From UHGV virus genome UHGV-0356582: DNA of 23,011 nucleotides, one strand, 5' to 3'. Shown piece after piece: positions 2,974 through 23,011 of the stretch (within the stretch, counting starts at the first letter, position 1; every line of letters begins with the position of its first letter). The translations under genes and the position numbers were made by a program. A model generated the notes under the pieces. It did not search any database and was not told where the DNA came from. It saw only the letters and a list, made by a program, of their open reading frames with translations. The stretch is from a virus.

Positions 2974-3584
2974 TGGCTAAACCAGCGCGAAGACGATGTA
3001 AAAACGATGAATGTCGGGAATGGTTTCACCCTGCATTCGCTAATCAGTGGTGGTGCTCTCCAGAGTGTGGAACCAAGATAGCACTCGAACGACGAAGCAA
3101 AGAACGCGAAAAAGCGGAAAAAGCAGCAGAGAAGAAACGACGACGAGAGGAGCAGAAACAGAAAGATAAAATTAAGATTCGAAAACTCGCTTTAAAGCCC
3201 CGCAGTTACTGGATTAAACAAGCCCAACAAGCCGTAAACGCCTTCATCAGAGAAAGAGACCGCGACTTACCATGTATCTCGTGCGGAACGCTCACGTCTG
3301 CTCAGTGGGATGCCGGACATTACCGGACAACTGCTGCGGCGCCTCAACTCCGATTTGATGAACGCAATATTCACAAGCAATGCGTGGTGTGCAACCAGCA
3401 CAAAAGCGGAAATCTCGTTCCGTATCGCGTCGAACTGATTAGCCGCATCGGGCAGGAAGCAGTAGACGAAATCGAATCAAACCATAACCGCCATCGCTGG
3501 ACTATCGAAGAGTGCAAGGCGATCAAGGCAGAGTACCAACAGAAACTCAAAGACCTGCGAAATAGCAGAAGTGAGGCCGCATGA
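2973..3584 (+). CDS. ninG: NinG/Rap recombination-associated structure-specific endonuclease
   Basis: [41 protein letters not shown]... near-identical to lambda NinG as I recall it. Two Cys clusters, lysine/glutamate-rich linker. Confidence 0.95.
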
Positions 3585-14797: not shown

Positions 14798-16216
14798 ATG
14801 CCGATTCAGCAACTTCCACTCATGAAAGGCGTCGGCAAAGACTTTCGAAACGCCGACTATATCGACTATCTGCCAGTGAATATGCTGGCTACACCCAAAG
14901 AAATCCTGAACAGCAGCGGATATCTTCGCTCATTCCCGGGCATTGCAAAACGTTCTGATGTGAACGGTGTATCTCGCGGTGTCGAGTACAACATGGCGCA
15001 GAATGCTGTTTATCGCGTGTGTGGTGGCAAGTTGTATCAGGGCGAAAGTGAAGTCGGCGATGTTGCCGGAAGTGGTCGTGTATCATTGGCTCATGGTAGG
15101 ACATCACAGGCGGTTGGCGTTAACGGGCAACTGGTCGAGTATCGCTATGATGGCACGGTTAAAACCGTCTCAAACTGGCCTGCAGACAGCGGGTTTACGC
15201 AGTATGAGTTAGGTTCGGTTCGTGATATTACGCGCTTACGTGGGCGTTATGCGTGGTCAAAAGACGGTACTGATTCATGGTTTATCACTGACCTTGAAGA
15301 CGAATCGCACCCTGACCGCTACAGCGCACAATATCGCGCAGAATCGCAGCCTGACGGCATCATCGGCATCGGAACATGGCGAGACTTCATCGTCTGCTTT
15401 GGTTCATCAACGATTGAATATTTCTCCCTGACTGGTGCAACCACTGTTGGTGCCGCGTTGTATGTCGCACAGCCATCGCTGATGGTGCAGAAAGGCATTG
15501 CCGGAACTTACTGCAAAACGCCGTTTGCTGATTCCTATGCGTTTATCAGCAACCCGGCAACAGGTGCGCCGTCTGTATATATCATCGGCTCCGGTCAGGT
15601 ATCACCAATCGCCAGCGCGAGCATTGAGAAAATACTACGCTCCTACACTGCTGATGAACTGGCTGATGGCGTGATGGAGTCTCTGCGATTTGATGCGCAT
15701 GAGCTGCTGATTATCCACCTTCCTCGCCATGTTCTCGTGTACGACGCATCTTCAAGCGCCAATGGTCCGCAATGGTGCGTACTGAAAACAGGACTGTATG
15801 ACGATGTGTACCGCGCTATCGACTTCATTTACGAAGGCAATCAGATAACGTGCGGCGATAAGCTGGAATCCGTGACCGGGAAACTGCAATTCGATATCAG
15901 CAGCCAGTATGACAAGCAGCAGGAACACCTGCTGTTTACTCCACTCTTCAAAGCAGATAACGCCAGATGCTTTGATCTGGAGGTGGAATCATCGACGGGT
16001 GTTGCTCAGTACGCTGACCGCCTTTTTCTCTCTGCAACCACTGACGGCATAAATTACGGTCGTGAGCAGATGATTGAGCAGAATGAACCGTTCGTTTACG
16101 ACAAACGCGTTTTGTGGAAGCGAGTCGGGCGCATCAGGAAAAATGTCGGCTTCAAATTGCGCGTTATCACGAAGTCACCAGTCACTCTGTCTGGCGCTCA
16201 GATAAGGATTGAGTAA
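14798..16216 (+). CDS. head completion / tail accessory factor, P22 gp10-like
   Basis: 472 aa, the same length class as P22 gp10. Located between the gp4-like and needle genes. Confidence 0.8.
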
Positions 16217-19612: not shown

Positions 19613-21609
19613 TGGCTAAAGCATGGAAAGATGTTATCGCCTCTCCACAGTATCAGGCGTTAGCACCAGAACAAAAAGCGCAGGCTCAGGAGCAATACTT
19701 CAATGAAGTCGTGGCCCCGCAAGCCGGAGAAAATGCAGAGCAGGCTAAGCAAGCTTTCTATGCTGCCTATCCATTGCCATCTGTGCAGCAAGTGGAGACA
19801 CAGCAACCAGTAGCACAGCAACAACCACAGCAAAGTGGATTTATGTCTGATCTTGGCGAAGCAGTAAAAGAGACTGGTCGCGGACTGGTGCAGGCTGGCG
19901 TTAACGTGGCAAACATACCTGCATCAGTTGCCGATGCTGTAACAAGCGCGGCGGCATGGGCTGGCGGTAAACTCGGTATTGGCGATGGTACATATCAACC
20001 AGCGCCACGAGTAACAACGCAGGGATTAGAGCAGGACTTTGGCCTTCAGCAAGGCGCGCTGACTCCACAAACGACAGAGGGAAGGGTATTTGCTGAAGCA
20101 TTGCCTTACCTCACTCCTGCTGGCGTTGAGAGGGCGGCGGCACAGGCACCAACACTTGCTAGTCGAATTGCTCAGGGGGCAACTCGCCTTCTCGCTGAAA
20201 ACGCAGTTGGATCACTTGCTGCAAATAGTGCGAAAGATGATGCGGAAGCACTCGCCACCGATTTAGGCGTTGGTGTACTGGCTGGCGGTGCTATTAACGC
20301 TGCCGGACGTGGATTAGGTGCTGCTTATCGTGGCGTTCGTGGTGCTATCGCGCCAGAAGCGCAGCAGGCTATCAGATTTGCAGAGCGTGTAGGAGTTCCT
20401 CTGCACACCACAGACCTGTTACAACCAACTTCCCGCGTCGGGAAAATGGCGCAGACTACAGCAGAAAATATCCCTCTGGCTGGCACAAGCGGAATGAGAG
20501 CAACGCAACAGGAAGCGAGAAGTCAGTTGGTGCAGAGATTTGCTGATAAATTCGGCGAGTACGATCCGGCAGTTGTTATTGACAGCCTTAAAGCGAAAAC
20601 ATCAGGAATTCGGCGTGCTGCAGGAAATCGACTGGAGCAGGTTCAGAATGCTATGGCGGGAATAAACATTCAGCCTGCAAGAGCAATTCAGCAGATTGAT
20701 ACAGAAATATCTAACCTGCAGAAGCTTGGTAAGGTTGCTGATAACGAGACTATTTCAAAACTTCAGTCCTATCGTGATGAGCTTGTTCGCAATGCTGGTC
20801 CTGATGGTCCGGTAAATCTGGATTTGAAGCAATTAAGCGATCTGCGCAGCCAGTTCAGAATGGACGTGAAGGGGGAGCGACCAGTGTTACCAAACCGTTC
20901 CGATGCTGCCATTCAGCGCGTTTACAAGGCAATGACCGACGATATCAATGGTGCCATTGGTCAGAATCTTGGCAACGATACTCTCCGTAAATATCAGCAG
21001 GCCAATGCCGTCTACGCTGACGAAGCGGCGAAACTAAAGAATACCAGGCTGAAGAATGTTCTCATGAAAGGCGACCTGACGCCGGAAGTTGTCAACAACA
21101 TGCTATTCAGCAAGAACAAATCGGAAATTAAGACGCTGTATAACTCAGTTGGTCGTGTTGGCAGGGCGCAAATGCGCAATGGCATCATTGGAAAGGCGAT
21201 GGAGAAATCTGGCGGATCCCCTGACCAGTTCCTTCGACAGCTTAACATCCTGCAAAACCAGACTGGCATCACATTTAAGGGGCAGGACGCTGCTTATCTG
21301 AAAGGATTAAAAAACTATCTGCAATCCACACAGCAGGCTGCAAAAGCGGCAGTAACAACACCCACAGGGCAGCAAACTATCCCGTTCATTATTGGGTATG
21401 GGACGGCAATGAACCCGGCGACAACTGGCGCAGCAGTAAGCTACGGACTTCTTACTCGCGCCTATGAGAGCGAGCCATTCAGAAATGCAATGCTCCGAAT
21501 GGCAAACACCCCACGCGGATCGACAGCGTTTGAGAAAGCCATGCAGCAAGCGCAAAAAGCGATTAATGCACTGACGCAGGGTGCGAAGTCTGATTCGTTG
21601 TCAGAATAG
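19612..21609 (+). CDS. ejection (injection) protein, P22 gp16-like
   Basis: 665 aa, Ala/Gly/Gln-rich. ATGA-coupled to the previous gene. Last gene of the rightward structural operon before the leftward genes. Confidence 0.7.
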   Translation: MAKAWKDVIASPQYQALAPEQKAQAQEQYFNEVVAPQAGENAEQAKQAFYAAYPLPSVQQVETQQPVAQQQPQQSGFMSDLGEAVKETGRGLVQAGVNVANIPASVADAVTSAAAWAGGKLGIGDGTYQPAPRVTTQGLEQDFGLQQGALTPQTTEGRVFAEALPYLTPAGVERAAAQAPTLASRIAQGATRLLAENAVGSLAANSAKDDAEALATDLGVGVLAGGAINAAGRGLGAAYRGVRGAIAPEAQQAIRFAERVGVPLHTTDLLQPTSRVGKMAQTTAENIPLAGTSGMRATQQEARSQLVQRFADKFGEYDPAVVIDSLKAKTSGIRRAAGNRLEQVQNAMAGINIQPARAIQQIDTEISNLQKLGKVADNETISKLQSYRDELVRNAGPDGPVNLDLKQLSDLRSQFRMDVKGERPVLPNRSDAAIQRVYKAMTDDINGAIGQNLGNDTLRKYQQANAVYADEAAKLKNTRLKNVLMKGDLTPEVVNNMLFSKNKSEIKTLYNSVGRVGRAQMRNGIIGKAMEKSGGSPDQFLRQLNILQNQTGITFKGQDAAYLKGLKNYLQSTQQAAKAAVTTPTGQQTIPFIIGYGTAMNPATTGAAVSYGLLTRAYESEPFRNAMLRMANTPRGSTAFEKAMQQAQKAINALTQGAKSDSLSE

Positions 21610-21699
21610 CCTTTCAAACACCAGGAACGTGCAAAAACCAAATATGTAGAACGCGATGTTTATCGTATCCCTCTGCATAGGCGATACCTTTGCTGATTG

Positions 21700-22188
21700 T
21701 TATCTGATGTTACTGCTACTGTTGCATGTTACCGTGTTTCCAAATCCTGAATTGCAGTTTGTATATGTGTCAACGCGTGTTGGGTAAGGTTGAGTTATAA
21801 CAGGCTGGCGCGCTTTTTGCTCGATAGCTTGCATTGTGTTTACAGCCTGATAATTCAATAAAGCCTGCTGGAATGCTTGGCTTTGTGCTATTTGTTGGGC
21901 TTGTTCTTGGCTTTGTAATTGAACATAAAGATTCTGAAGCTCAAGTCTTGCCTGTGCGTCACTTATCTTGCCTTCATCAACACCTTGCCCGAGCATCTTT
22001 GCAGCAAGGACATACAGCTTAGGTGTTGGTGCAGATGCCATGCGTGAGTCGTTCTTCACACTGGCATCAAGGCAATTAGCCATATCGCTAAGCTTTTGAT
22101 AGCGTTGTTCGCAACTTGCTTGATAGTCACTTACTTTTGCGCATCCAACCAGCAGAAGCGGGATAATTAACAGTGATTTTTTCATATG
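21700..22188 (-). CDS. predicted lipoprotein, about 162 aa, Gln-rich middle and Cys-containing C-terminus
   Basis: Start ATG at 22186-22188 on the minus strand, preceded by AGGAGAG. Signal peptide MKKSLLIIPLLLVGC with a lipobox. AT-rich. Opposite strand to the structural operon, at the P22 sieA/immI position. Confidence 0.7.
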   Translation of the reverse strand, partial: HMKKSLLIIPLLLVGCAKVSDYQASCEQRYQKLSDMANCLDASVKNDSRMASAPTPKLYVLAAKMLGQGVDEGKISDAQARLELQNLYVQLQSQEQAQQIAQSQAFQQALLNYQAVNTMQAIEQKARQPVITQPYPTRVDTYTNCNSGFGNTVTCNSSSNIR

Positions 22189-22255
22189 GTTAACTCTCCT
22201 TAGTTTTTCACAGGATATCATGAAGGCAATGCCATTTTAGCCGGAAACTAGATTT

Positions 22256-22522
22256 CTATGTTTCCTTTTTATTATTGCTATACATGGTCTTAAGCGTTTC
22301 AAAAACCATTTTCTTAACCATATCGGATTGTTGTTCTGCCATACGCTCTGCATCGTCAATGTAAACTGATGCAGAGCTTTGTTTATCCAATGATTCCTCA
22401 ATCGCTGCAATTATCTCTGAGTTCAGCGATCTGTTATTCATCTTCGCACGCTGTTTAATTTTCGCGTGGAGTTCATGCGGAAGTCTCAAGTGAAACTGCG
22501 CCTCGTCGTATTTGCTGTACAT
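22256..22522 (-). CDS. mnt: Mnt-like ribbon-helix-helix repressor (Arc/MetJ superfamily)
   Basis: FHLRLPHELHAKIKQRAKMNNRSLNSEII... and ...DDAERMAEQQSDMVKKMVFETLK... parallel P22 Mnt (NFRMPMEVREKLKFRAEANGRSMNSELL... / ...NDAERLADEQSELVKKMVFDTLK...). Start taken at the internal ATG (22522); the upstream in-frame ATG at 22555 lacks an RBS. Confidence 0.8.
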   Translation of the reverse strand: MYSKYDEAQFHLRLPHELHAKIKQRAKMNNRSLNSEIIAAIEESLDKQSSASVYIDDAERMAEQQSDMVKKMVFETLKTMYSNNKKET

Positions 22523-22595
22523 CCTTGATGCCTCACCAGGTGGGTGGAATGGCATCGTAACTTACTGGATAAATACTCAATAGTACCATTTCGGT

Positions 22596-22618
22596 ATGCA
22601 ATCACATCATGATTGCAT
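22596..22618. promoter_or_regulatory. 23-bp dyad-symmetric element (candidate operator) between mnt and the tailspike gene
   Basis: ATGCAATCA-CATCA-TGATTGCAT: perfect 9-bp inverted arms around a 5-bp centre, in the 120-bp divergent intergenic region. Confidence 0.4.
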
Positions 22619-22642
22619 CATATCATTCGTCTGGAGCAATGA

Positions 22643-23011
22643 AATGTCAGATATCACCGCAAATGTTGTGGTAAGCATGCCTTCGCAACTCTTCACTATG
22701 GCGCGTTCTTTTAAAGCCGTAGCCAATGGCAAAATTTATATCGGTAAAATTGACACTGACCCGGTAAATCCAGAAAACCAGATTCAGGTTTATGTAGAGA
22801 ATGAAGACGGCTCTCACGTTCCTGTTTCGCAGCCAATCATCATTAACGCTGCTGGATATCCGGTATATAACGGACAGATTGCCAAATTCGTTACTGTACA
22901 GGGCCATTCTATGGCTGTTTATGATGCGTATGGGGCGCAGCAGTTCTATTTTCCGAATGTGCTGAAGTATGATCCTGATCAATTTTCTGTATGGGCAAAA
23001 AATCATTTCAG
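22643..23011 (+). CDS. tailspike protein, N-terminal head-binding domain (P22 gp9-like), 3'-truncated by window edge
   Basis: [59 protein letters not shown]...VLKYDPDQF closely matches the P22 tailspike N-terminus. GGAG 7 nt upstream. ORF runs off the window. Confidence 0.9.

Follow-up and report, generated by a model that had tools for sequence, protein, structure and literature searches.

Gene organization and the inverted repeat at the end of the window

The window analyzed here is a 23,011-nt stretch of the virus genome UHGV-0356582. It ends within a tailspike gene on the + strand (22644–23011), which runs past the window end and encodes the N-terminal head-binding domain (Pfam Head_binding PF09008, E 7e-69). 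The start of this gene shows 88–93% nucleotide identity to those of Sf6, HK620, and CUS-3. On the opposite strand, a mnt homologue of 88 aa (MYSKYDEAQFHLRLP...) occupies positions 22256–22522, as identified from the ORF list and from Pfam, PDB, and tblastn matches. The combination of a Mnt homologue and a P22-type head-binding domain indicates that the DNA belongs to a P22-like (Lederbergvirus) prophage and that the window reaches into its "ant moron", the variable stretch between gene 16 and the tailspike gene that was described by Villafane et al. (PMC2629481). The region is approximately 97% identical to the Lederbergvirus phages IME10 and Sf101, and the same allele was found in about 226 of 5426 complete E. 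coli genomes. The moron contains only a lipoprotein-like gene and the mnt homologue, arranged back to back with the tailspike gene, and it carries neither arc nor ant. Morons with mnt only are known from the phages ST64T and L; the literature gives them no known role (PMC2629481, PMC8022706). The lipoprotein-like gene (21700–22185, − strand; 161 aa, MKKSLLIIPLLLVGC...) encodes a protein that belongs to no Pfam family and whose sole match is PHROG 6067, of unknown function; judged by its position, it is a candidate for a prophage-expressed surface or exclusion function.

The start codons of the mnt homologue (22522, − strand) and the tailspike gene (22644, + strand) are separated by a gap of 121 nt. 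The Shine–Dalgarno sequence of the tailspike gene, GGAG, is located at 22633–22636 (+ strand), 7 nt before the ATG, within the block TCTGGAGCAA, which is conserved in P22-like leaders. An out-of-frame ORF of 11 codons (ATGAAATGTCAG..., 22639–22674) starts 5 nt before the tailspike ATG; it is probably unused, since its own ATG lies only 2 nt from the GGAG.

A sequence-only reading of the window had pointed to a perfect 9-5-9 inverted repeat in this divergent mnt/tailspike region, and both the sequence and the place were reproduced exactly. The left arm (ATGCAATCA, 22596–22604) and the right arm (TGATTGCAT, 22610–22618) are 100% complementary, and they are separated by the 5-nt spacer CATCA (22605–22609). 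When read as + strand RNA, the repeat (22596–22618) corresponds to a stem-loop that ends 14 nt upstream of the GGAG. It is the sole perfect 9-bp inverted repeat with a loop of ≤ 10 nt in the 23-kb window, and no second copy of it occurs elsewhere there. Nevertheless, such repeats are not enriched window-wide, because dinucleotide shuffles of the whole window gave 0.94 of them on average. When the 122-nt intergenic stretch was shuffled, such a repeat arose in 144 of 20000 sequences (0.7%); this is a post-hoc test, and the statistical weight of the repeat is moderate. The literature searched contained no description of this dyad or repeat, and the Sf101 genome paper makes no mention of mnt, an operator, or the repeat. 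Inspection by eye gave no convincing match to Fur, CRP, LexA, MetJ, or LacI/PurR-type sites at the repeat. An Rfam 15 search of positions 22100–23011 with E values up to 10 returned only chance-level matches (E ≥ 4), none of them at the repeat.

The Mnt homologue and its candidate operator

The neighboring gene, called Mnt-like in the sequence-only reading, was verified to encode a true Mnt homologue. Its product matches the Pfam families Arc (PF03869, E 9e-15) and Repressor_Mnt (PF11423, E 4e-12) and the PDB entries 1MNT (E 8.5e-19) and 1QEY (E 1e-6), and it is 47% identical to P22 Mnt by tblastn and can be aligned with P22 Mnt along its entire length. Both the N-terminal ribbon-helix-helix of the Arc type and the C-terminal tetramerization helix are present. 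An in-frame ATG further upstream (22555, − strand) would extend the protein by 11 residues, and the start calls in RefSeq are inconsistent (MYSKYDE... versus MPFHP...). The shorter form starting at 22522 is more likely, because the upstream ATG overlaps the presumed −10 element (TACGATG). It was also found that RefSeq phage entries and PHROGs alike widely label Mnt homologues as "partition protein ATPase" (Sf101 gp14, PHROG 795); this label looks like a propagated misannotation, since the proteins are ribbon-helix-helix repressors of 83–99 aa.

Mnt and Arc are textbook models for ribbon-helix-helix recognition, and in Mnt the β-strand positions 6, 8, and 10 contact the bases. As compared with P22 Mnt, two of these three positions differ in the window protein (His6 to Gln and Asn8 to His), while Arg10 is kept. 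Thus, an altered operator specificity is likely, as the sequence-only reading had supposed. That reading had attached the altered specificity to the 9-5-9 repeat, and this part did not hold: the specificity appears to belong to a neighboring site.

This site was found by following the position of the P22 operator. In the curated P22 record (BK000583), Omnt is annotated at 14822–14844, within CTCAATAGGTCCACGGTGGACCT; it lies just after CTCAATAG and has the core AGGTCCAC-G-GTGGACCT. The window carries an identical CTCAATAG, which is followed by GTACC-ATTTC-GGTAT at 22583–22597, collinear with the annotated P22 Omnt. Its core, TACC-N5-GGTA (22584–22596), has the same 4-5-4 layout as TAGA-N5-TCTA within the P22 Arc operator. 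The core occurs once in the window, against an expectation of 0.06, with no second copy.

To compare such sites, every Mnt-like ORF was extracted together with its upstream DNA from the loci collected in this analysis. Three types of Mnt β-strand were found, each with its own dyad at a fixed position after C(T/A)CAATA. The type HFNFRM is accompanied by GGTCCAC-N-GTGGACC, which is the annotated P22 Omnt. The type QFNLRL, found in the phages L, ST160, and Gally, is accompanied by AGACCAC-N-GTGGTCT, and the type QFHLRL, to which the window protein belongs, by GTACC-(A/G)TTT(C/A)-GGTAT. In all three types, the arms of the dyad are mostly constant and the center is variable. GTACC-N5-GGTAT is kept together with QFHLRL Mnt across Escherichia, Salmonella, and Buttiauxella, in every leader context; a Buttiauxella prophage has the perfect form GTACC-ATTTT-GGTAC, and a Citrobacter locus has one base changed. 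In some prophages, the right half of TACC-N5-GGTA is mutated (TGTA, GATA, GTTA, or GGCA), and these may be decaying copies. Based on these sequence comparisons, the Mnt operator is most likely GTACC-N5-GGTAT at 22583–22597.

A possible mnt promoter on the − strand (22554–22580) consists of TTGAGT as the −35 element (22580–22575), a 15-nt spacer, and TACGAT as the −10 element (22559–22554). It is proposed, as a weak inference, from its positional homology to Pmnt of P22 (BK000583) and from reading of the sequence, and it lies below the threshold of the promoter scan. The candidate operator at 22583–22597 adjoins this presumed −35 element.

The three recognition strands and the three operator dyads at one genomic position would form a natural specificity series that is testable by EMSA. 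In the mnt-only morons, a repressor and its operator are situated directly upstream of the tailspike gene, and the function of this arrangement is called unknown (PMC8022706). If the operator is correctly located here, the role of these morons becomes testable. The candidate operator and the three-way series may thus be a more useful outcome than the 9-5-9 repeat itself.

The 9-5-9 repeat is probably not the Mnt operator

The sequence-only reading had regarded the 9-5-9 repeat as the obvious candidate for the operator of the Mnt tetramer, which would control mnt and/or the tailspike gene with a specificity unlike that of P22. The repeat does resemble P22 Omnt in being a two-fold symmetric site upstream of mnt, in a divergent region beside a true Mnt homologue whose recognition residues differ from those of P22. 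Furthermore, every copy of the repeat that was found adjoins this mnt module, which speaks for some link to Mnt; such adjacency is expected anyway, as the left arm is partly made of mnt-module sequence. The commonest allele of the repeat also creates ATGGT, which resembles one half of the neighboring 22583–22597 site.

However, the position, spacing, and inheritance of the repeat disagree with such a function. The repeat starts 13 nt beyond the start of the collinear site and overlaps it only by its first 2 bases, and it shares no sequence with P22 Omnt, to which the sequence-only reading had already seen no resemblance. No TACC/GGTA half-site occurs within it. Its arm centers are 14 bp apart (16 bp for the outer 7-mers kept in Escherichia sp. 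E1V33), in contrast to the 4-bp boxes placed 9 bp apart (4-5-4, total approximately 17–21 bp) in the Arc operator, P22 Omnt, and all three Mnt-type dyads. At least nine distinct loci with an intact QFHLRL Mnt lack the repeat, and all of them carry TACC-N5-GGTA. They include E. coli PM7, HS, and EC556, the Salmonella phage VSe13, Buttiauxella, and several IMG/VR prophages; these loci (PM7, HS, EC556, VSe13, and the IMG/VR prophages) have a P22-type tailspike leader instead. The co-inheritance therefore holds only in the converse direction, from the repeat to the mnt module. In E1V33, both arms are changed (G>T and C>A), yet the recognition strand of Mnt is still QFHLRL, and the commonest allele of the repeat is asymmetric. 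These comparisons suggest that the repeat is probably not the Mnt operator, and we regard the operator reading as scarcely probable.

Other DNA sites and transcription termination

The repeat might instead be bound as DNA by another factor, or it might be an operator for a further promoter directed leftward. The right arm adjoins TGaTATGAT (22625–22617, − strand), which is like an extended −10 element and could belong to a second mnt promoter, of which the repeat would cover approximately −8 to +15. The promoter scan also gave a − strand candidate with CTGACA, a 17-nt spacer, and AATGAT (9 of 12 matches). In E1V33, TATGAT is retained, as are the outer 7-mers apart from a symmetric double change, despite the weak RNA hairpin there, which also favors a DNA site. 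On the other hand, the promoter-like hits in the scanned region (21500–22800) are at chance level, two being found against 2.1 expected in shuffles; the extended TG is lost in E1V33 and in one variant; no candidate binding protein other than Mnt is encoded nearby; and the commonest allele is asymmetric. This explanation is thus improbable.

The terminator t_ant and other terminators that precede the tailspike gene likewise form + strand stem-loops downstream of the moron. The repeat shares this location and strand; it differs from them in having no U-tract and an A+T-rich stem and in being undetected as a terminator. A terminator scan of 21500–22800 gave no site. Only three of the nine stem pairs are G-C, and the 8-nt tail, CATATCAT, contains 3 T. 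Because the U-tract is missing, the repeat is not a terminator by the usual rule for Rho-independent termination. A weaker function can be supposed, in which the repeat is a weak attenuator where non-antiterminated RNA polymerase would stop or pause on its way to the tailspike gene, in place of the ant terminator of full immI regions. Terminators are indeed found before the tailspike gene in Pantoea, Erwinia, Pseudescherichia, HK620, Yersinia, Xenorhabdus, and Proteus, no other terminator was predicted in the moron of the window, and the dosage of the P22 tailspike has been linked to transcription through the moron (PMC2629481). Against this stand the same stem and tail, which fail the terminator rule, and the attenuator is considered very improbable.

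Variation of the repeat and the predicted RNA stem-loop

The + strand hairpin of the window is predicted to have a folding energy of −9.1 kcal/mol, and its pairing probability is 0.84–0.89 in contexts of 60–400 nt. Copies of the repeat were collected by scanning IMG/VR and metagenome contigs with anchors on the flanks, which gave 111 and 44 contigs, respectively. The commonest form among them is ATGCAATCA-CATCA-TGGTTGCAT, and only a minority have the perfect form seen in the window; IME10 has the perfect form, and Sf101 has the G form. The TGGTTGCAT allele produces a T·G mismatch in DNA, which corresponds to U·G in the + strand RNA and to A·C on the − strand. The same pair also occurs as U-A (the window) and as C-G. 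Other variants behave similarly: C4>T and C8>T, each in three backgrounds, and A9>G all yield G·U pairs on the + strand, while A9>T, G3>T, and T23>C break pairs.

Among the 20 distinct sequences of this type, 98.3% of the paired cells are kept on the + strand, as compared with 86.7% on the − strand, and the non-Watson–Crick cells comprise 22 G·U and 1 A·C. The alignment is shallow (98% identity), no two-sided change occurs within it, and its covariation does not exceed that of shuffles (n = 20). The strand bias, which amounts to about five pair-preserving transitions versus one pair-breaking transition (roughly p = 0.1), is suggestive of variation biased toward + strand pairing, and a C>T mutational bias could contribute to it.

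Only one divergent leader of the window type was found, in Escherichia sp. E1V33 (locus L327, approximately 947–969). It reads ATTCAAT-AATATCAAA-ATTGAAT and has the same length of 23 nt. The outer 7-mers are kept, and the pair 3–21 is changed on both sides from G-C to T-A. Two inner pairs are lost, and the RNA hairpin is marginal at −2.1 kcal/mol.

Leader hairpins of other P22-like phages

Hairpins of unrelated sequence were found at the corresponding position in other P22-like leaders. The P22-type leader (...ACCGTAGCCATGCTGCGGCGATTCCTTGTATCTGGAGCAAATTAAATG), which P22 shares with most of its relatives, contains the hairpin CCGTAGC-CAT-GCTGCGG, with a 7-bp stem and a 3-nt loop, located at 3161–3177 of the P22 locus (BK000583, L006) and at 1172–1188 of the HK620 locus (L325). 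Its stem ends 27 nt before the tailspike ATG, as compared with 25 nt in the window and 19 nt in Sf6. Among 55 distinct sequences, 96.6% of the cells are paired; one pair appears as C-G, U·G, and U-A, and the covariation score was reached by 2 of 500 shuffles, which is modest support. The non-Watson–Crick cells on the + strand are 65 G·U versus 3 A·C. This hairpin and the 9-5-9 repeat are thus alike in their position upstream of the shared TCTGGAGCAA, in strand, and in G·U-biased variation; they differ in that they have no sequence similarity and in that the P22-type stem is shorter and G+C-richer. The P22-type hairpin lies in the "boundary sequence", a conserved stretch that precedes the tailspike genes of P22-like phages and carries the annotation bsq1 in CUS-3. 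The literature searched gave no function for this hairpin, and the papers on epsilon34 and phage L describe the ant moron and its mnt-only versions with no leader hairpin.

Sf6 has no mnt/ant moron, and its leader (locus L324, 1164–1205) forms an unrelated 12-bp hairpin, GCAATgCCGGACA...TGTCCGGaATTGC, of −20.9 kcal/mol. Further versions of the leader hairpin were found in Citrobacter, Yersinia, Rahnella, Xenorhabdus, and Proteus prophages, among others. In Pantoea, Erwinia, and Pseudescherichia prophages, a true terminator stands directly before the ribosome-binding site of the tailspike gene, and in HK620 and in prophages of Yersinia, Xenorhabdus, and Proteus a second hairpin lies downstream of a terminator. 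The hairpin is absent in the Arsenophonus/APSE type and in a deletion variant of the Gally type.

In order to view these leaders together, 21 leader types were compared. The region from −62 to −15 folds better than its shuffles (mean z −1.7, p approximately 4e-4), with 13–15 of the 21 types below z −1 in two runs, while five control windows in the same loci gave mean z values of −0.9 to +0.3. The folding-energy strand test on these types gave about equal values for the + and − strands. The difference from the control windows indicates that a stem-loop preceding the ribosome-binding site is recurrent, though not universal. On the grouping proposed here, in which the stem ends approximately 19–27 nt before the ATG, the 9-5-9 repeat belongs to this class, and it may be the version carried by the IME10/Sf101-type allele.

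The repeat at a mosaic junction

The repeat is composed of two parts of different origin. Homology with PM7, HS, EC556, VSe13, and several IMG/VR prophages, which have the same mnt module, covers the first six bases of the left arm and breaks off at 22601. From about 22630, at TCTGGAGCAA, the window is again homologous to other P22-like tailspike leaders. Between these breaks lies a 28-nt leader segment (22602–22629, + strand) that is found in the IME10/Sf101 type only. The final 3 nt of the left arm come from this segment, as do the loop, the right arm, and CATATCATTCG. Thus, the first 6 nt of the repeat are part of the mnt/operator module, and the remainder is part of the IME10/Sf101-type leader segment.

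This structure raises the main rival to a functional hairpin, namely, that the repeat is a neutral palindrome without function, which arose as the mnt module and the IME10/Sf101-type leader came together, and which persists as the allele is young. Template switching, with an inverted copy made of the adjacent ATGCAATCA, would be one way to produce it. Template switching at quasi-palindromes can copy changes from arm to arm without selection. The straddling of the homology break (22601/22602) by the left arm fits such an origin. So does the roughly 98% identity of all copies, which leaves little time for decay. In addition, the stem is not poorer in substitutions than the flanks, and chance alone would give about one repeat of this kind in 23 kb. 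The rarity of such a repeat in shuffles of the intergenic stretch (only 0.7%), the bias of the variants toward + strand pairing, the presence of unrelated hairpins at this position in leaders of other types, and the excess of structure in this stretch over the controls count against it. A neutral junction palindrome is, on balance, unlikely, but it deserves to be taken seriously.

A putative role in the tailspike leader

From the above comparisons, the repeat is best read as a small RNA hairpin of the tailspike leader or as a functionless junction palindrome. The explanation that we tentatively place first, with a chance somewhat below even, is a joint one: Mnt would bind at 22583–22597, and the 9-5-9 repeat would act as a + strand RNA stem-loop with a punctuation or stabilizing role. 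The stem-loop would form in late-operon RNA produced by read-through of the moron toward the tailspike gene; a transcript from a vestigial Pant-like promoter, if any, would also carry it. There, the hairpin would serve as a local punctuation or stabilizing element for the tailspike cistron, shielding it from 5′-end-dependent decay of the roughly 1 kb of untranslated antisense-moron RNA upstream, and it might also slow RNA polymerase that lacks late antitermination. Such a role is favored because the tailspike gene closes the late operon, downstream of this untranslated antisense-moron RNA. If the repeat gates transcription of the tailspike gene, as the sequence-only reading had suggested, this is more likely to occur at the RNA level.

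The hairpin of the ompA 5′-UTR offers a possible analogy, being likewise a small stable hairpin upstream of a ribosome-binding site that it does not sequester. Known 5′ stabilizers, such as the ompA hairpin, act at or within a few nucleotides of the 5′ end. A function as an "insulator" that keeps the ribosome-binding site open was also considered and was rejected: in silico disruption of the right arm left the accessibility of the SD/AUG region unchanged (0.36–0.50 versus 0.41–0.47).

A broader idea is that a stem-loop approximately 20–27 nt upstream of the tailspike start is a structure-specific, sequence-independent control point of expression in P22-like phages, for which at least three unrelated sequences have been recruited independently, the 9-5-9 repeat being one re-invention, to which the edge of the Mnt operator module contributed part of the sequence. 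We consider this idea doubtful. If true, the control point would act on mRNA processing, mRNA stability, or the passage of RNA polymerase. The tailspike sets the host range in P22-like phages. The importance of the repeat is modest even so, since it would at best be one more leader hairpin that doses the tailspike; its kind is an ordinary one, a small leader hairpin or a junction palindrome, with a new sequence.

Rearranged leaders

Two leader regions with rearrangements were also observed. In a subgroup of the Gally type (IMG/VR loci L059, L066, L069, and L071), the leader hairpin is deleted, apparently by slippage between CTG[C/T]GGC repeats, and the operator dyad GACCACGGTGGTC is followed by a T-run, which gives it a terminator-like look. 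In P22 (locus L006), the start of the leader, AAAATTCACCGTAGCCA[C/T]GCT, is duplicated (3043–3063 and 3153–3175). The two copies flank an insert of approximately 110 bp that carries the terminator-like hairpin GACCTACAAAAAAATTGTAGGTC, and this looks like an insertion into the boundary sequence.
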